The notes beneath the pieces are model-generated. The model was given only the letters and a program-made list of their open reading frames with translations, did no database searches and was not told the DNA's origin. Below, piece after piece: positions 27,108-38,282 of a stretch of 38,282 nucleotides of DNA (the stretch's first letter is position 1; each line of letters begins with the position of its first letter). The stretch is taken from positions 1 to 38,282 of the IMG/VR virus record IMGVR_UViG_3300011894_000001; one strand, given 5' to 3'. This DNA comes from a virus. Both the position numbers and the translations under genes were made by a program.

Positions 27108-27632
27108 CTACTCGAAGAATTTTCCAAACCACTCTGAGACTTTATTAAAATTTAAAACAAAGGTTGCAAATCCACCAATAAAAAAGATCGTTAGAATATT
27201 AACAAGAAAGTTTTTACCAACTTCACTAAACCACCACCCAGCTCCTTGTTTTTCTGTCATAAACCCATTGATTGTATTCACTTTTGTTTCAACTATTTCC
27301 AGTTGGGCTTTAACTTTTGAATCAAGTAGTGCTTGGTCTTCAAGGGCTGCTATTTCGGAACTTAATGCAACATTTAAAAGATTACTAACGACTATATTTG
27401 CTTGATCACGAAAACCTTTTAAAGAGGAGTCAAGTTCACATTGTGTGTGAAATGTTTCCCACTCTTGATCGTTTGGGTCTCGTTGATGGCGCGATTTTAT
27501 TTGATTAATAAAATCTATCTTATGCTTTTTATAAATTGTATAGGCAACAATACTTTCAAGATTGTACCCCTGATCATTTTCAGTAAGCCTTTGAAATACC
27601 CAGCTATATTTAGGGTCAGGAGTTTGACTCAT
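27108..27632 (-). CDS. 174-aa protein with cytoplasmic helical N-domain and C-terminal transmembrane anchor
   Basis: C-terminal FLVNILTIFFIGGFATFVLNF hydrophobic helix preceded by GAGWWF. ATGA overlap with the upstream 62-aa gene. Confidence 0.65.
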   Translation of the reverse strand: MSQTPDPKYSWVFQRLTENDQGYNLESIVAYTIYKKHKIDFINQIKSRHQRDPNDQEWETFHTQCELDSSLKGFRDQANIVVSNLLNVALSSEIAALEDQALLDSKVKAQLEIVETKVNTINGFMTEKQGAGWWFSEVGKNFLVNILTIFFIGGFATFVLNFNKVSEWFGKFFE

Positions 27633-27817
27633 AACCCTTGCATAGCCTTATTGAAAGCTGCATTCACTGCTTCCATATCTGGTTTAAAGTTACGAACAAC
27701 TTTTCGACCTTCAGCAGACAATGGGATATCTTCTGCTGTGATACCAGGATTATCACGCAGCATTTGATTAAGACGACGGACACTCTCCACAGTAAAGACG
27801 CGTTTACGTTTTTCCAT
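27629..27817 (-). CDS. 62-aa basic protein, first gene of minus-strand cargo operon
   Basis: Start moved to ATG 27817 (MEKRKRVF...), with AGGTG upstream. The track start at 27898 would lie upstream of the predicted promoter. Confidence 0.55.
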   Translation of the reverse strand: MEKRKRVFTVESVRRLNQMLRDNPGITAEDIPLSAEGRKVVRNFKPDMEAVNAAFNKAMQGL

Positions 27818-27851
27818 ACTGCACCTGATTAAATAAAAATAGTACATTGCT

Positions 27852-27883
27852 ATATTGACATAACGATTCACTATCGGCAATAT
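27852..27883. promoter_or_regulatory. Overlapping back-to-back divergent sigma70-like promoters
   Basis: Plus strand: TTGACA (27855-60), N17, CAATAT (27878-83). Minus strand: TTGCCG (rc of 27874-79), N16, CAATAT (rc of 27852-57). Each -35 overlaps the other promoter's -10. Confidence 0.45.
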
Positions 27884-27889
27884 GGAAAA

Positions 27890-27973
27890 GCACAGCAAAA
27901 TCTGTGTACAGGCCTAGGAAACCTGTTAATTTCTCAGAGAGCAGAAAAAATCCGCTCGCAGCGGCTTTTTTTT
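27890..27973 (+). ncRNA. Candidate short terminated transcript carrying boxes a1/b1 (leader or decoy RNA)
   Basis: Runs from the predicted TSS near 27890 to the 16-bp terminator hairpin. Contains GGCCTAGGAAACC (27911-23) and CTCAGAGA (27933-40), both complementary to 28041-28064. Confidence 0.35.
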
Positions 27974-27975
27974 GC
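27941..27975. terminator. Strong bidirectional intrinsic terminator
   Basis: GCAGAAAAAATCCGCT-CGC-AGCGGCTTTTTTTTGC forms a hairpin of about 16 bp, with an A-run on the 5' side and T8 on the 3' side. Confidence 0.8.
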
Positions 27976-27999
27976 CTAAAATGTCAGATCGGCTATACT
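27972..27999 (+). promoter_or_regulatory. Sigma70-like promoter for the antisense-RNA/small ORF/rha transcript
   Basis: TTGCCT (27972-77), N16, TATACT (27994-99). Predicted TSS about 28006. Confidence 0.5.
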
Positions 28000-28005
28000 T
28001 CGTTA

Positions 28006-28081
28006 TGGTAGATCGGCAGGGCAGCCTTGCGCTGGCCGTTTCTCTGAGTACGGTTTTCCTAGCCTTGTCGGTCTGCCACCA
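28006..28081 (+). ncRNA. Candidate c4/CI-like antisense immunity RNA (boxes b' and a')
   Basis: GC-rich island in AT-rich DNA. b' TCTCTGAG (28041-48) sits in the loop of hairpin CCGT/ACGG. a' GGTTTTCCTAGCC (28052-64) follows. GGCAG (28015-19) can pair with CTGCC (28073-77), followed by ACCA. a' and b' are complementary to both upstream (a1/b1) and downstream (a2/b2) boxes. Confidence 0.45.
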
Positions 28082-28137
28082 TTACCCTAGGAAAGTAGTG
28101 GGGGTAGGTTTGCTAAAACTTACTCAGAGTATTCACC

Positions 28138-28308
28138 ATGAAAAAATCTATTCATGTCATCGAGCACACGCCTATCTATGATTTAGAAGCGTTTAAACAA
28201 CGCCAGAAAAAGCGCAAAATTCACCAATTATTCAAAAACGTTATCGACACATTCACGTTCTTATGTGCAGTCTTTATGACTTTTTCTATATTATTCATAG
28301 GGGGATAA
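28138..28308 (+). CDS. Unannotated 56-codon ORF: small protein with C-terminal TM helix (icd/kil-like position)
   Basis: MKKSIHVIEHTPIYDLEAFKQRQKKRKIHQLFKNVIDTFTFLCAVFMTFSILFIGG. Below the ORF-track cutoff. Its stop is 4 nt before the rha ATG. Box b2 (28121-29) covers its weak SD region. Confidence 0.5.
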   Translation: MKKSIHVIEHTPIYDLEAFKQRQKKRKIHQLFKNVIDTFTFLCAVFMTFSILFIGG

Positions 28309-28312
28309 GCTC

Positions 28313-29119
28313 ATGACGACACTCGAATTACAAAATGCTGTATTCATTCAAAATGATCAAATCAAAACTGACAGTCTTAAAGTCGCTGAGATTTTTGGTA
28401 AACCCCATAAAGACGTATTACAAAAGATCAAAACCTTGGATTGTTCAGAGGAATTCACTGAGCGAAATTTTTCGCTCAGCGATTACTTAGATAAATCTGG
28501 ACGTTCATTGCCCATGTATGAAATGACCAAAGATGGCTTTATCTTTCTGGCAATGGGATATACAGGTGCAAAAGCAGCTCAGATCAAAGAAGCCTACATA
28601 AAGGCTTTCAACCAAATGGCTGAGCTGCTCTTAAAACAGCGAAATCAATTGCAAACAATACAAATTGGCTCAGTTGTTCAATTACGCTCAGGTAGTCCAA
28701 ATTTAACTGTAAATAATATTTTCGATGATATTGCTGAAGTGATCTGGTTTAGAGGAGGGCGTATTGTTCGCGAACATCTTCCGATTAGTTGCTTAAGTTT
28801 GGGGGAAAGCGATCAACTTGCACCAAATGTTGCAAGTTCACTTGAGTCATTTTGGTCAAACATGTACACACATGGTATTCACAACTTCAATCATAGCAAT
28901 CGTACCGATCAAATTGCGATTAACCTCACACAAGTTCTAGACCTATTCCCCAATCTGTTTAAACGTCCAGATCTAATTCAGACCCTACCTCACAGTAAAC
29001 CGCCATATCCTAAATATTTGGAACACAATATTGCAATTCAGAGTAGGTTGGAACGTAAAACGATTCGTTGTTGGATATTTACAAGTAGCCAACCTACCAT
29101 GATTGATGTCGGTCGCTAA
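28313..29119 (+). CDS. rha: Rha-family phage regulatory/antirepressor-like protein with DUF2158-like middle domain
   Basis: N-terminus SLKVAEIFGK.HKDVL..I..L......F.ERNF....Y.D..GR..PMYEMTKDGF.FLAMGYTG.KA...K.AYI.AFN.M is the pRha signature. GSVVQLRSGSPNLTV...W is DUF2158-like. Strong GGGGGA RBS. Confidence 0.8.
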   Translation: MTTLELQNAVFIQNDQIKTDSLKVAEIFGKPHKDVLQKIKTLDCSEEFTERNFSLSDYLDKSGRSLPMYEMTKDGFIFLAMGYTGAKAAQIKEAYIKAFNQMAELLLKQRNQLQTIQIGSVVQLRSGSPNLTVNNIFDDIAEVIWFRGGRIVREHLPISCLSLGESDQLAPNVASSLESFWSNMYTHGIHNFNHSNRTDQIAINLTQVLDLFPNLFKRPDLIQTLPHSKPPYPKYLEHNIAIQSRLERKTIRCWIFTSSQPTMIDVGR

Positions 29120-29124
29120 GGGGA

Positions 29125-29691
29125 ATGATGATGAACGAAAATATTATTCCCTACGTGCCCATTGCACCACGGGTTCAGGCAACCAATGAAAAAAGCCGTT
29201 TACTTTGCGAACAATTATTTTTGCTCATAGACAGTGTGACCAGTAGTCAAATCCTTTTTAACCACCAGACTGATAAGGGATTCTTATCAATTTCCCCCGA
29301 TCAAATTAATGATTTGATTGAAGAACTGTCAAAAACTAATCGTTCATTCAAAAAAATCGATATAAAGTTATTAAATTCGTCGCTAAAAGATCTTATTTAT
29401 CCTAAGTTTAATGGAGAACACACCATTATTAGCCCGATCTGGAACAACACAGAGGTACGGGTTTGGCAATTTCAATTAAATCAAATTGCTAATGGGGTAA
29501 ATATGGAACTTTTAGATAAAGATGCAGAATTGAACTTAGACATGGCTTTAAGTGCTTTACGCATTTGGCGTAATTCATTAGAAACTGGGTCTGAAAATAG
29601 AGATGTAATTTATAAAAGAAATGATCTAATTTACAAATTAATGGACTTAGAGCATCGATTGCAAATAGTCCAGCGAGAACTAGAGGAATAG
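29125..29691 (+). CDS. Hypothetical 188-aa protein
   Basis: AAGGGGA RBS, co-oriented with rha. No family recognised. Confidence 0.55.
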   Translation: MMMNENIIPYVPIAPRVQATNEKSRLLCEQLFLLIDSVTSSQILFNHQTDKGFLSISPDQINDLIEELSKTNRSFKKIDIKLLNSSLKDLIYPKFNGEHTIISPIWNNTEVRVWQFQLNQIANGVNMELLDKDAELNLDMALSALRIWRNSLETGSENRDVIYKRNDLIYKLMDLEHRLQIVQRELEE

Positions 29692-29693
29692 AT

Positions 29694-29724
29694 AAAAGGC
29701 CCACTGTAAAAGGTGGGCTTTTTT
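29694..29724. terminator. Bidirectional intrinsic terminator between the convergent rha operon and repressor gene
   Basis: AAAA-GGCCCAC-loop-GTGGGC-TTTTTT. Confidence 0.75.
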
Positions 29725-29733
29725 ATGCATTGA

Positions 29734-30078
29734 TCATTCTTTATTTTCGACTTCTTTCGCATAAACAGAACTTAAACGTAGTAAAGCTTCCTGAGCTTCA
29801 GGGCTAAGCTGTCTATATGCTTTTAATAACAAACTTTCTTCACTTGTAAGACCACTAAAGTCTGGATCAATGCCAAGCAATACATAACGGATATCTATTC
29901 CCTGTTTTTGTAGTTTTGCTAGGTAAACCCACTGATCTGGCACTTTGTTGCGGACATAGTTACCTAACGTATTTTCATGGGCATCGATACTGCGTGAAAG
30001 CGGTTTTGCTCTCAAATTTTTACGCTCCAGCTCTTCTGTGAACCTTTGTGTAATCTCTACAGCCAAATTTTCGGACAT
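29734..30078 (-). CDS. Phage repressor, HTH (XRE/CI-like)
   Basis: HTH-like segment LSRSIDAHENTLGNYVRNK. Divergent from the early operon. ATG 30078 with GGTGA SD is preferred to the GTG at 30087. Confidence 0.7.
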   Translation of the reverse strand: MSENLAVEITQRFTEELERKNLRAKPLSRSIDAHENTLGNYVRNKVPDQWVYLAKLQKQGIDIRYVLLGIDPDFSGLTSEESLLLKAYRQLSPEAQEALLRLSSVYAKEVENKE

Positions 30079-30096
30079 ATATTTCACCGATATATA

Positions 30097-30145
30097 TTGA
30101 AAGACTAAATATTTATGCTATAGTGATTCGTAGCACATCACTATA
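30097..30145. promoter_or_regulatory. Early promoter plus operator dyad in the repressor/early-gene intergenic region
   Basis: TTGAAA (30097-102), N16, TATAGT (30119-24). Perfect inverted repeat TATAGTGAT (30119-27) / ATCACTATA (30137-45) with a 9-nt spacer overlaps the -10. Confidence 0.6.
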
Positions 30146-30802: not shown

Positions 30803-33532
30803 ATGATGTTTCCAGAAACCAAAGCTTTAGTAGTAGAGAAGTTAAAAGATGTCTACGGCTTCAAAGTTAAGGGCAACGATAAATTGCGTGGTAGATGCCC
30901 AGACTGCAACCACAAGGAAGCATCAGCTTGGGTATATCCTGAGGAACCGTGGGTAGTTTTCTGCCCACGTAAAAACGAATGTGGTAAAGAAAACCACATT
31001 CGTGATTTATTCCCTGAGTTATTTGAAAAATGGGAAAAACGATTTGAACCCACTCCAGAAGACCCAAACAAAACTGTAAATGCTTATCTTGTTGAAGGTC
31101 GTGGATTCCCTCTAGAACCATTAAAGGGTCTATACACACAAGAAAGTATTACCCGTTATAAGCCTAAGAAAACCACTTCTATTACATTAAGGTTCCCAAT
31201 CACAGATGAAGAAGGGAATCCAGGATGGTGGCAGCGCGTTCTAGATGAACAAGGCGTTTTGCCAAAAACCACATTTAAAGAAGAATGGTCTTCAGCTGGC
31301 CACGCTTGGATGACTCCAAACACAAACTACATCGAGTCAAAAGAGATCTGGATTACTGAAGGTATCTTTGACACGATCGCTCTTTGGTTATCAGGCATTA
31401 CTAGCTTTTCAGCTTTATCTGCTGGAAATTACCCTAAAATTTTCCTCAATCACATTGCAATGAAATGTGCTGAACAAGAGCTGCCATTACCAAAGCTTGT
31501 GTGGGCATATGACAACGATAATGCTGGGCATGAGGGTATAAGAAAAAACATAGCCTTAGCTGAAGAACTCGGCTTCGAGTCTGAAGCTGCACTTCCTCCT
31601 AGTGGGCGTAAAAAAACAGACTGGAATGACCTTTATAAACAAGATCGTCTCAAGTTTTCAGATTTAGAAACTTATAAATATTACGGTTCTTTATTAATCG
31701 CTGAGAAACCTGTGGATAAAGGCATACTTATCTACAAGCGCTATGGTACCAAGTCATTTCCTTTCGATTTCAATAACTGCATCTATTGGTTCAAATTAAA
31801 CATGGATAAATACGATGACTACATGAAAGGCATCGATTTTGAACCAAATGATAATGAGGATTGGGCACAAGAGGAAAAAGACCAAGCTACATCAGAACGT
31901 CGTGAAGCAGCCATTCAGCATGCTGCAGATGTAGAAATTATGATGGAATGCCGACCACATGGCCTTTATTACCAGTATCAAAAAGAAATAGATGAAGCAG
32001 ATTATTACTTTCAAATAGATTTTCCACGCGGTGCGAAAACTATTAAGAACACGTTTAGCCCTTCACATATTTCTTCAGCACCAGAGTTTGGTAAACGACT
32101 TCTACATGTTGCACCTGGTGTTTTTTATGAAGGTAACAGTAAACAACTACTCGCTTTTTTAAAGCGTGAGCTCAAGGATATTAAACGTGTTCAGCTTATT
32201 GATTATGTGGGATATCACGCAGAACAAAAGACCTATATTTTAGGTGAATTGGCTTACCAAAGTGGCAAGCAATATACGATCAATAAAGAAGATTATTTTG
32301 AACTTCCACGCCATACCAACCTAAAGTGTAATGCTCCATTTGCATTGGAAATAAATAAGAGCCAAGAGGAGTATCAACAGCGCTGGGTTACAGACTTCAT
32401 TGACGCTTATGGCGTTAAAGGTTTAATCGGGTTAACAGCATTTTTTGGATCTTTATACGCTCAGCAGATCCGCAAAACACATAAGTCATTTCCATTCGTT
32501 GAACTAGGTGGTGAACCCGGTACAGGTAAATCAACTTTGATTACTTTCCTATGGAAGTTGTTTGGAAGGGTAAACTATGAGGGTTTAGATCCTACTAAAA
32601 CATCCAAAGCGGGTTTAATCCGTACTTTACGCCAAGTATCCAACCTTCCAGTCGTATTTATTGAATCAGATCGCCAAGGTGAAAATTCATCTAAGCAGTT
32701 CAACTGGGATATGTGCAAAACCATGTACGACGGTGGCTCATTAGGTGCCATGGGTGTAAAGGCAGGTGGTAATACAACATACGAACCACTGTTTATGGGC
32801 ACTTTAATTATTAGCCAGAATGCTGAAGTACTAGCATCTGAAGCGATTATGGGCCGTATTGTCCATGTTCATTTTTATAAAGATCAGTTAAGTAAAGCCA
32901 GTCTCCACGCCTCACGCAACTTATCAAAATATGAACCTGAGAATGTTAGCCAATTCATTCTGCAATGTTTAAGCAAAGAAAAAGACATTTTAGATGCCTT
33001 CAATATTGGCTATGAAAAATATGATGCGATGTTGCACCAGGAACAATACAACATCCAAAGCTCTCGTATTGTTCACAACCATGCCCAGCTTATGTCTCTA
33101 TTTGATGCGATGTGCCGTCATGTAATTGAAGTGCCGGCACAAGTACAAAAACAGGTGACTGAAGAATTTATCAAGATGGCTCAGAGCCGTGACAAAGTCC
33201 TCAAGTCAGATCCAGTTATTGTTCAGAACTTCTGGAACACGATTGAAGAAATGGAAGACTCCATACGAAAAGTTGAACATGCAGATAGCGTCGTAAACCA
33301 CTCGGCTAAGTCAGACATTATGGCCATCAATTTTGCTCATTTATATAAGGTCGCAGCGGATTATCGATACGCATTACCTGAAGTGAATGAATTGCAAAAT
33401 GCATTACGTCACAGCCTTCATTACCGCTTTGTTGAAGCAAATAAAGCCATACAAAGCAAAATTACCAACTCAACAAAACGATGTTGGATCTTTGAAAAAC
33501 CAACTTCACAACGGGATCAAACCCACTTTTAA
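30803..33532 (+). CDS. Bifunctional primase-helicase replication protein (Zn finger + Toprim + P-loop NTPase; P4 alpha / D5-like)
   Basis: CPDC...C zinc motif. Toprim-like EGIFD and YDNDNAG. Walker A GEPGTGKS. 910 aa. Confidence 0.8.
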   Translation: MMFPETKALVVEKLKDVYGFKVKGNDKLRGRCPDCNHKEASAWVYPEEPWVVFCPRKNECGKENHIRDLFPELFEKWEKRFEPTPEDPNKTVNAYLVEGRGFPLEPLKGLYTQESITRYKPKKTTSITLRFPITDEEGNPGWWQRVLDEQGVLPKTTFKEEWSSAGHAWMTPNTNYIESKEIWITEGIFDTIALWLSGITSFSALSAGNYPKIFLNHIAMKCAEQELPLPKLVWAYDNDNAGHEGIRKNIALAEELGFESEAALPPSGRKKTDWNDLYKQDRLKFSDLETYKYYGSLLIAEKPVDKGILIYKRYGTKSFPFDFNNCIYWFKLNMDKYDDYMKGIDFEPNDNEDWAQEEKDQATSERREAAIQHAADVEIMMECRPHGLYYQYQKEIDEADYYFQIDFPRGAKTIKNTFSPSHISSAPEFGKRLLHVAPGVFYEGNSKQLLAFLKRELKDIKRVQLIDYVGYHAEQKTYILGELAYQSGKQYTINKEDYFELPRHTNLKCNAPFALEINKSQEEYQQRWVTDFIDAYGVKGLIGLTAFFGSLYAQQIRKTHKSFPFVELGGEPGTGKSTLITFLWKLFGRVNYEGLDPTKTSKAGLIRTLRQVSNLPVVFIESDRQGENSSKQFNWDMCKTMYDGGSLGAMGVKAGGNTTYEPLFMGTLIISQNAEVLASEAIMGRIVHVHFYKDQLSKASLHASRNLSKYEPENVSQFILQCLSKEKDILDAFNIGYEKYDAMLHQEQYNIQSSRIVHNHAQLMSLFDAMCRHVIEVPAQVQKQVTEEFIKMAQSRDKVLKSDPVIVQNFWNTIEEMEDSIRKVEHADSVVNHSAKSDIMAINFAHLYKVAADYRYALPEVNELQNALRHSLHYRFVEANKAIQSKITNSTKRCWIFEKPTSQRDQTHF

Positions 33533-38034: not shown

Positions 38035-38198
38035 TATACCAGCCAATAAAGGTTAAACCTTTGATTGAGTACGGCTCTAAAAGTGGCCATAAAAACTATA
38101 AAAGTTTGGCCATGAATATCCCTAAAATTCCCATATTAAGTATTTTTCTAAACCCCACGTAAGCTAAATATATGATTTATATATATCTATAGGCTTAA

Positions 38199-38231
38199 TT
38201 GTGTTGGGTTCGAATCCCGTCATTCACCCCA
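38199..38231 (+). pseudogene. 3' fragment of a tRNA-His-like gene (T arm + acceptor strand + CCA), no 5' half present
   Basis: TTGTGTTGGGTTCGAATCCCGTCATTCACCCCA resembles the 3' end of gammaproteobacterial tRNA-His (GGGTTCGAATCCC...CACCCCA). The upstream sequence is AT-rich and not tRNA-like. Confidence 0.5.
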
Positions 38232-38235
38232 ATTT

Positions 38236-38282
38236 CGGAGCATAGCACAGCCTGGTAGTGCACCTGGTTTGGGACCAGGGGG
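38236..38282 (+). tRNA. tRNA-Pro (UGG), nt 1-47, cut off by window end
   Basis: CGGAGCATAGCACAGCC... is identical to the left-end copy over 43 nt and supplies the 5' acceptor strand CGGAGCA complementary to TGCTCCG at 61-67. Confidence 0.85.

Follow-up and report, generated by a model that had tools for sequence, protein, structure and literature searches.

The stretch analysed here, 38,282 nucleotides (nt) of IMG/VR virus record IMGVR_UViG_3300011894_000001 (hereafter the window), contains at 28001-28083 a member of the C4 antisense RNA family, set between two copies of a bipartite target complementary to it. We consider it highly probable that this RNA and its surroundings form an IsrK/C4-type RNA immunity module, of the kind of P1/P7 immI, which controls an operon of a small open reading frame (ORF) and a rha-type regulator gene in a P2-like Acinetobacter prophage. 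The initial annotation had proposed such a module from a bipartite box that occurs three times within a GC-rich non-coding island; the pattern is confirmed and its interpretation is supported. The island is borne out by composition: the GC content is 56.6% at 28001-28083 and 45.8% over 27850-28137, compared with 37.9% in the whole window.

The assignment to the C4 family comes from an Infernal search with the Rfam model, a check that had been suggested together with the proposal. The match scored 52.1 bits, above the gathering score of 45, with E 2.3e-7, and covered model positions 1-87 of 87 (RF01695, clan CL00128).

28001-28083, plus strand: C4-family antisense RNA gene (Rfam RF01695 match)

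In the model alignment a long closing stem encloses two hairpins, the box b′ occupies the loop of the second internal hairpin, as had been supposed for the central RNA, and the box a′ lies in the single strand after that hairpin. From an alignment with P1 C4, annotated at 77 nt, the mature RNA is predicted to span 28007-28080/81, with an AU|GG 5′ context and a GCCACC(A) 3′ end that align with the annotated ends of P1 C4. The 3′ end reads GCCACCAUU, and the terminal ACCA noticed earlier is located at 28078-28081. The predicted mature RNA has a folding energy of -35.9 kcal/mol (z = -3.83), and none of 200 shuffles was equally stable. Across 10 sequences, 17 of the 25 consensus stem pairs show compensatory, double-sided changes.

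The C4 RNA and its flanks hold six boxes, all found at the positions and in the order that the initial annotation had given.

27913-27921, plus strand: a1 box, CCTAGGAAA; CTAGGAAA (27914-27921) is complementary to a′, and the predicted fold places the box in the loop of leader hairpin 2
27933-27940, plus strand: b1 box, CTCAGAGA; complementary to b′ at 28041-28048 and single-stranded in the predicted fold
28041-28050, plus strand: b′ box, TCTCTGAGTA, that is TCTCTGAG (28041-28048) followed by TA; loop of the second internal hairpin
28054-28062, plus strand: a′ box, TTTTCCTAG; complementary core at 28055-28062, in the unpaired junction on the 3′ side of the second hairpin
28086-28094, plus strand: a2 box, CCTAGGAAA; begins 3-4 nt past the C4 match
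28121-28129, plus strand: b2 box, TACTCAGAG; spans the only Shine-Dalgarno (SD)-like purines; 8 nt separate it from the ATG at 28138

The pairing of b′ with b2 runs through CTCTGAGTA (28042-28050). The sequence CTAGGAAA was found nowhere else in the 38-kb window, and when both strands of the whole window were searched for an a box followed by a b box, with one mismatch allowed in each, these three sites were the only ones returned and no further bipartite C4 target was found. As a control for chance, the flanks were subjected to 20,000 dinucleotide-preserving shuffles, a shuffle being counted when a and b each matched over 8 nt or more. Both box matches arose in 8 of the 20,000 shuffles upstream and in 3 of the 20,000 downstream, and in 0 of the 20,000 on both sides.

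The strongest evidence that the boxes pair with each other comes from related loci. Relatives of the Rha-type protein, gathered from genomes and viral contigs, have Acinetobacter and close kin as their hosts. C4 stands upstream of the rha homologue in seven Acinetobacter/Alkanindiges genomes, in one Arsenophonus and one Marinomonas genome and, with a model built from ten sequences, in 36 of 36 full-length viral-contig relatives. A DNA-level search of 27600-29700 against deposited phages in distant mode gave short Rha-domain matches only and no module-level relative. The relatives carry about 10 variants of a′ and about 20 of b′, every one of them mirrored by a1, b1, a2 and b2 at fixed offsets from C4: a1 precedes it by about 68-92 nt and b1 by about 52-76 nt, and a2 follows it by 1-7 nt and b2 by about 28-40 nt. 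We compared complementarity of at least 7 nt within a locus and between mismatched locus pairs, using 31 distinct loci including P1 and Gifsy-1. Both a1 and a2 are complementary to the a′ of their own locus in 31 of 31 cases, compared with 11-12% for mismatched pairs. The corresponding values for b1 and b2 against their own b′ are 84% and 77% (90% for b2 at ≥ 6 nt), compared with 7-8% for mismatched pairs. Even in L040, a locus whose Rha protein is 99% identical to that of the window, a different a′ (TTTCCAC) and b′ (CTCTTAG) are accompanied by matching targets. The co-variation of box pairs in homologous loci, on which the initial annotation had staked its proposal, is thus present, with both target sets following a′/b′; since a2/b2 co-vary with a′/b′, a′/b′ must pair with a2/b2.

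The downstream copy of the target is placed at a start codon.

28138-28308, plus strand: 56-codon leader ORF (phrog_24540, E 1.2e-16), containing the motif EHTPIYDLEAF and, at the C-terminus, a hydrophobic tail
28313-29119, plus strand: Rha-family regulator gene (PF09669, Phage_pRha, E 7.6e-31; phrog_18886, phrog_518 and anti-repressor PHROGs)

The sequence agrees with the earlier description that b2 covers the only SD-like purines of the 56-codon ORF and lies 8 nt upstream of its ATG, and that 4 nt separate the stop of this ORF from the ATG of the rha-type gene at 28313. The position is general. In 26 of the 26 loci examined, the first ORF downstream begins 45-56 nt past C4, directly after b2, and in L002, L003 and L011 b2 includes the SD sequence itself. 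Two loci, L011 and L072, are without a leader ORF, and there rha itself is the gene at b2. The 56-codon ORF sits where P1 has icd and Gifsy-1 has orf45. Between a2 and b2 we also observed a hairpin at 28102-28125 (GGUAGGUUUG...AAACUUACU), whose 3′ arm takes in the 5′ part of b2; an equivalent hairpin of changed sequence is visible by eye in L001, L002, L005 and P1. It may present b2, or may compete with C4 for b2.

The upstream copy, for its part, is not a free-standing repeat. It is part of an IsrK-like leader with a conserved promoter and terminator of its own, which the initial annotation had overlooked.

27855-27883, plus strand: upstream promoter P(up), predicted from sequence; -35 TTGACA at 27855-27860, 17-nt spacer, -10 CAATAT at 27878-27883
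27891-27973, plus strand: IsrK-like leader/small RNA, composed of hairpin 1 (27891-27906), hairpin 2 (27908-27926, a1 in its loop), single-stranded b1 and the intrinsic terminator
27952-27973, plus strand: intrinsic-terminator-like hairpin, CCGCU CGC AGCGG, then a run of 8 T
27972-27999, plus strand: internal promoter-like site, putative, TTGCCT-16-TATACT, between the leader terminator and C4

The predicted start of P(up) is at about 27890-27891. A TTGAC(A/C/G/T)-17/18-TAnnnT-like site occurs at the corresponding position in all 29 loci whose upstream sequence is long enough, and in P1 this position coincides with the annotated promoter P1c4 (former P51b). Folding of the leader yields both hairpins and the terminator. 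The terminator hairpin is preceded by an A-run and therefore reads as a terminator on both strands; an equivalent hairpin and T-run were seen in all relatives listed and in P1. The Rfam isrK model (RF01394) aligns over its full length to 27891-27971 with 33.6 bits (E 1.4e-5 in a 541-nt search), under the gathering score of 50. The a1/b1 region of P1 itself scores 35.1 bits with this model, and the loci L011 and L016 exceed the threshold at about 60 bits. The Rfam c4-a1b1 model (RF03163), which matches P1 with 51.0 bits and Gifsy-1 with 48.1 bits, gave no match at E ≤ 10 in 27780-28320. Between the -10 element of the internal promoter-like site and the 5′ G predicted for mature C4 the distance is 7 nt (4-7 nt across loci). 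The site was found in 12 loci, all of the window's own clade and with variant hexamers such as TTGCCA and TTGTCA, and among the compared loci it is absent from other Acinetobacter clades, P1, L011 and L016. To judge from its placement, C4 may be a primary transcript in the window's clade.

By analogy with P1, P4 and Gifsy-1, these elements would act as follows. Transcription from the promoter at 27855-27883 would start a leader showing a1 in a hairpin loop and b1 single-stranded, and on meeting the terminator at 27952-27973 most transcripts would probably end as an IsrK-like RNA of ~80 nt. C4 would be transcribed by read-through or from the clade-specific promoter at 27972-27999, and would be trimmed to a stable RNA of ~74 nt (28007-28080) with b′ in a hairpin loop, a′ in an open junction and a closing stem followed by ACC(A), which resembles the acceptor end of a tRNA. 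C4 and CI precursors are known substrates of RNase P (PMC5499578). The processed RNA would pair with a2 (28087-94) and b2 (28121-29), both in the operon's own mRNA and in that of incoming related phages, and the pairing with b2 would cover the ribosome site of the 56-codon ORF. In that case rha would not be translated either, because it starts 4 nt past the stop of the leader ORF (with an ATGA overlap in relatives). An early end of transcription through polarity would also be possible, as in P1. The a1/b1 leader RNA, acting as a decoy, would pair with a′/b′ in trans, or in cis within read-through transcripts; the minimum-free-energy (MFE) fold of 27891-28150 pairs a1/b1 (27914-27940) with a′/b′ (28041-28062). 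Leader pairing would titrate or unfold C4, so that a burst of upstream-promoter activity would turn on the operon, and the Rha-type protein would then counter lysogeny.

Several observations weigh against this reading. From the relatives we infer the ends of the RNA, its processing and the repression at this locus. The upstream element is under the isrK threshold and has no c4-a1b1 match, and the single-sequence fold places part of b′ in three extra pairs within its loop. In the predicted mRNA fold, b2 lies partly within a local hairpin, and in a few relatives the complementarity of b1 or b2 is only 4-6 nt exact. The regulated proteins are unrelated to Icd, Ant1 and AnrP, so that 'immunity' and 'antirepressor' are provisional terms.

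The other explanations differ mainly in what the pairing does. We judge it unlikely that the module acts as in P4, where a C4/CI-like RNA would pair with both copies on the nascent transcript and cause premature termination at 27952-27973 and/or downstream, the translation block not being primary. An intrinsic terminator does lie directly past b1 and is kept in relatives and in P1, P4 itself provides the precedent (PMC4825925, PMC3632133), and the replication protein is a large Toprim primase (phrog_1139, PF13155), not a rolling-circle initiator. However, b2 is at the ribosome site in every locus, with the SD included in several, no terminator-like site is predicted past a2/b2, and the controlled operon is that of the small ORF and rha, not a replication operon. 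Termination of the P4 type and a translation block are not mutually exclusive, and in P1 the translation block leads to polarity.

Distinctly improbable, in our estimate, is a cis switch like 'structure A/B' of Gifsy-1, in which the read-through leader would fold a1/b1 on a′/b′, the ribosome site would be locally closed, the short a1/b1 RNA would activate in trans and free C4 would be minor. Such a switch is in keeping with the MFE fold described above, which also places part of b2 in a hairpin, with the experimental activation of Gifsy-1 by short IsrK (PMC4825925) and with the presence of the same Rfam elements at the Gifsy-1 locus. It would leave the co-variation of a2/b2 with a′/b′ in all 31 loci unexplained, though, and the C4 stem-loop architecture with its ACC(A) tail is kept, with compensatory changes, as that of a free-standing RNA. 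In addition, processed C4 is a repressor in trans in P1 (PMC8546580 and the P1 annotation), and the promoter of the window's clade would yield C4 without the a1/b1 leader. That the boxes are chance intergenic repeats, or the element an unrelated structured one such as a tRNA-like remnant, has next to no probability: the shortness of the boxes (8-9 nt) is the sole point in favour, and against it stand the family match above threshold, the 0 of 20,000 shuffles with both flanks matched, the locus-specific co-variation and the uniqueness of the box pairs in the window.

Under the preferred reading, an antisense RNA blocking the ribosome site at b2, the gene finally controlled is rha. The product of this gene had been described as a Rha-type, antirepressor-like protein; the Rha domain is confirmed by the PF09669 match, and 'antirepressor' stands as an annotation-level term. 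The closest database protein, 99% identical, is a 'Rha family transcriptional regulator' of Acinetobacter baumannii. The protein consists of a Rha domain at the N-terminus, a small beta-barrel in the middle and, at the C-terminus, a domain that also occurs in the phage primase. The beta-barrel (28670-28800, about amino acids (aa) 120-163, from a structure model) has a weak match to Pfam DUF2158 and non-significant KOW/SH3-like neighbours such as NusG/Spt5 KOW and NdhS; a fold search with the whole Rha model was dominated by this middle barrel (KOW/SH3-like, E ≥ 0.01). The C-terminal ~85 aa (28829-29086) are paralogous to the C-terminal ~90 aa of the primase (33239-33505), with 34% identity over 80 aa (E 1e-7), and both domains match the same PHROGs (20645 and 18886). 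Modelled alone, the C-terminal domain reached a predicted local distance difference test (pLDDT) value of 88.9 with an H-beta-H-H-beta-beta topology. Its comparison with known structures returned only non-significant winged-helix DNA-binding domains (best E 0.6, TM 0.46), and a sequence search of the PDB found no relative of the Rha/primase domain. Because of this paralogy, the gated regulator may share a binding partner or a DNA site with the primase.

Two features of the window's clade would together allow a more far-reaching rewiring, to which we assign a low probability: C4 made from its own promoter at 27972-27999, and a switch at the primase's DNA sites, on replication, instead of repressor inactivation. 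The predicted start of that promoter equals the mature 5′ end, so C4 would be a primary transcript independent of the a1/b1 leader and of RNase P. If C4 does have its own promoter, the terminated a1/b1 RNA would be a dedicated anti-antisense signal, possibly under repressor control. As for the second feature, the Rha domain is joined to a winged-helix-like copy of the primase C-terminal domain, so the switch might act at the DNA sites of the primase.

The leader ORFs that precede rha fall into at least three families among the window, L050, L054, L055, L056 and other loci. The first (56-67 aa), which includes the ORF of the window and is kept in divergent loci, is marked by the motif EH(T/S)P(I/V)YDL and by a hydrophobic tail. 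Members of the second (43-44 aa) have a RLTSPDFAQK...GGAK motif and an ATGA overlap with rha, and those of the third (103-105 aa) a CLQRLLSPDFAGQ motif together with a hydrophobic tail. Such a tail points to a small membrane protein, and the leader ORF may thus have a role beyond coupling. On the other side of rha lies one more rightward gene.

29125-29691, plus strand: 188-aa ORF (phrog_25537, E 5.5e-98), ending just before the convergent repressor gene

This ORF is probably the last gene of the rightward unit; similar-sized ORFs follow rha in L001 and L002.

In four enterobacterial loci a different Rfam RNA, sRNA-Xcc1, takes the place of C4 before the Rha-type gene.

L009 3827-3914, L010 3848-3940, L013 3840-3926 and L014 3831-3935: sRNA-Xcc1 matches (RF02221)

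In L013 and L010 this RNA follows a C4-like logic. A long closing stem ends in ACCCGACC(G/A)CC, the loop box has an upstream complement located after a hairpin with an a1-like box and before a terminator, and its downstream complement is fused to the SD sequence; an a2 of at least 7 nt was not seen. In L009 and L014 an a1-like match of at least 7 nt is the only one. The sRNA-Xcc1 family may be a C4-type antisense RNA outside Rfam's C4 clan.

The element that carries the module is an integrated P2-like myovirus prophage of Acinetobacter, and the P2-like context named in the initial annotation is borne out by its gene arrangement. The structural genes are in P2 order: the genes for portal and large terminase point away from those for scaffold, capsid and small terminase, and sheath and tape measure come next. 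An integrase gene is likewise encoded in the window. The RNA module adjoins a switch region in which a leftward 117-aa gene (29734-30087) faces a rightward ribbon-helix-helix (RHH) gene and the gene for the 911-aa Toprim primase. The latter is the phage's replication protein (phrog_1139, PF13155), in place of a rolling-circle initiator. The leftward gene had been called a helix-turn-helix (HTH) repressor; its position fits such a role and it has a weak match to PHROG 8 (E 5.5e-5) and no Pfam match, so the family part of the claim is weak, and we call it a repressor tentatively. The interval between the 117-aa gene and the RHH gene holds an inverted repeat, TATAGTGAT-N9-ATCACTATA (30119-30145), which overlaps the -10 element of the rightward early promoter and whose core is present in L001 too. 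The spacer of the upstream promoter (27863-27874) matches one arm of this repeat at 11 of 12 positions. We looked for an operator common to the upstream promoter and the repressor/RHH switch region in 8 loci and rejected it, as 11-mer matches with at most one mismatch were no commoner than with shuffled promoters; the half-site match falls in the divergent-promoter gap only in the window and in L005. This sequence likeness, which is statistically not secure, would suggest repressor control as at P1 Op51, and we record it as a note only.

The ends of the window may be noted here. Its first 43 bases (1-43) equal its last 43 (38240-38282) and both copies lie inside a tRNA gene, so either the contig is circular with overlapping ends, or the window spans att repeats located in a tRNA gene. 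The Rfam tRNA match covers 1-70 with its 5′ end cut off, and a separate fragment resembling a tRNA 3′ end lies at about 38195-38232, directly before the terminal copy.

Systems of this kind have been known since 1990. The module is a further example of such an RNA-based phage immunity switch, in a host and a phage type apparently not studied for one: the top literature results for C4 antisense RNA, Acinetobacter and prophage included no paper with the phrase 'C4 antisense RNA'. With it, lysis-lysogeny control in a common type of Acinetobacter prophage gains an RNA layer that can be put to the test. The ~10 a′ and ~20 b′ specificities on otherwise near-identical modules form a natural series, usable for studying the co-evolution of three or five sites and the diversification of RNA-based heteroimmunity. 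The specificity diversity, the clade-specific promoter before C4 and the domain sharing between Rha and primase are the points that might reward experiments.

The c4 antisense RNA and c4-a1b1 were catalogued in Proteobacteria and their phages by Weinberg et al. 2010 (PMC2864571), and an IsrK-C4 immunity system was named in P4, P1, P7, N15 and lambdoid prophages by Barquist et al. 2013 (PMC3632133). In these accounts CI and seqA of P4 are treated as the structural homologues of C4 and IsrK, respectively (PMC3632133, PMC4825925). The likeness of our module to P4 is drawn from literature descriptions. It lies in an antisense RNA with complementary copies upstream and downstream on one transcript (PMC3632133, PMC4825925). 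In P4, however, the output is premature transcription termination ahead of replication genes, whereas in the window the downstream copy coincides with a ribosome site, no terminator is predicted downstream, and the small ORF and rha are the genes under control. Of the resemblance to P4 CI claimed initially, the layout of flanking copies therefore stands, and a termination output is less well supported than a block of the ribosome site as in P1.

Gifsy-1 of Salmonella, with its IsrK, STnc1160, orf45 and AnrP, offers a closer parallel. There isrK, overlapped by c4-a1b1, is followed by C4 and then by the regulator gene anrP, the same Rfam elements in the same order, and a short terminated leader RNA exists beside a read-through mRNA whose leader ORF is translationally coupled to the regulator (PMC4825925). 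Hershko-Shalev et al. 2016 (PMC4825925) reported that short IsrK activates the translation of orf45-anrP and that AnrP induces Gifsy-1, and they remarked on a processed RNA of ~80 nt downstream of IsrK. The region 27891-27971 of the window aligns over the full isrK model, although with a score under the threshold (33.6 vs 50 bits). The two modules also differ in that the host phage of Gifsy-1's is lambdoid. AnrP is an ORF6N-domain protein, and as a candidate homologue of the Rha-type protein it was rejected, no similarity being found. In Gifsy-1 the distance from C4 to anrP is 55 nt, so that orf45 must overlap the C4 region, whereas the leader ORF of the window begins 55 nt past C4 without overlapping it.

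The closest likeness is to P1/P7 immI, for which we used the P1 RefSeq annotation. This lists an operator, two promoters, a1, b1, c4 (77 nt), a2, b2, icd and the overlapping ant1, and c4 RNA is known to repress Ant synthesis (PMC8546580). P1 and the window have an RNA of the same Rfam family (68.8 and 52.1 bits) and the same succession of promoter, a1, b1, hairpin with T-run, C4, a2, b2, small ORF and tightly coupled regulator gene. The spacings agree as well: the end of b1 lies 67 nt from the mature 5′ end of C4 in both, a2 follows the C4 match by 3 nt in P1 and 3-4 nt in the window, and b2 precedes the ATG by 10 nt in P1 and 8 nt in the window. By position the window's upstream promoter is the counterpart of P51b, and specificity lies in a′/b′, as in P1/P7 heteroimmunity (PMC12197685). 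The differences lie mostly outside this RNA layer. The window belongs to an integrated P2-like Acinetobacter myovirus, P1 is a plasmid prophage, and a second, repressor-controlled promoter with an annotated operator is not evident in the window, where the single half-site match is statistically not secure. Also unlike P1, the window's clade has a promoter-like site between terminator and C4. The 56-aa ORF is unrelated to Icd and the regulator is a Rha-domain protein (PF09669), whereas P1 Ant1 carries an ANT/KilAC domain (ANT PF03374); BLASTP found no similarity of the two products to Icd and to Ant1, respectively, and both candidate homologies were rejected. The likeness to immI asserted in the initial annotation thus holds for the order, the spacings and the RNA family and fails for the regulated proteins. 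The missing icd/ant homology bears on membership in the immI operon, not on the RNA family or its mode of action. Since the regulated proteins are not homologous to those of P1 and Gifsy-1, the RNA layer is the conserved module, and the regulator that it gates is exchangeable.

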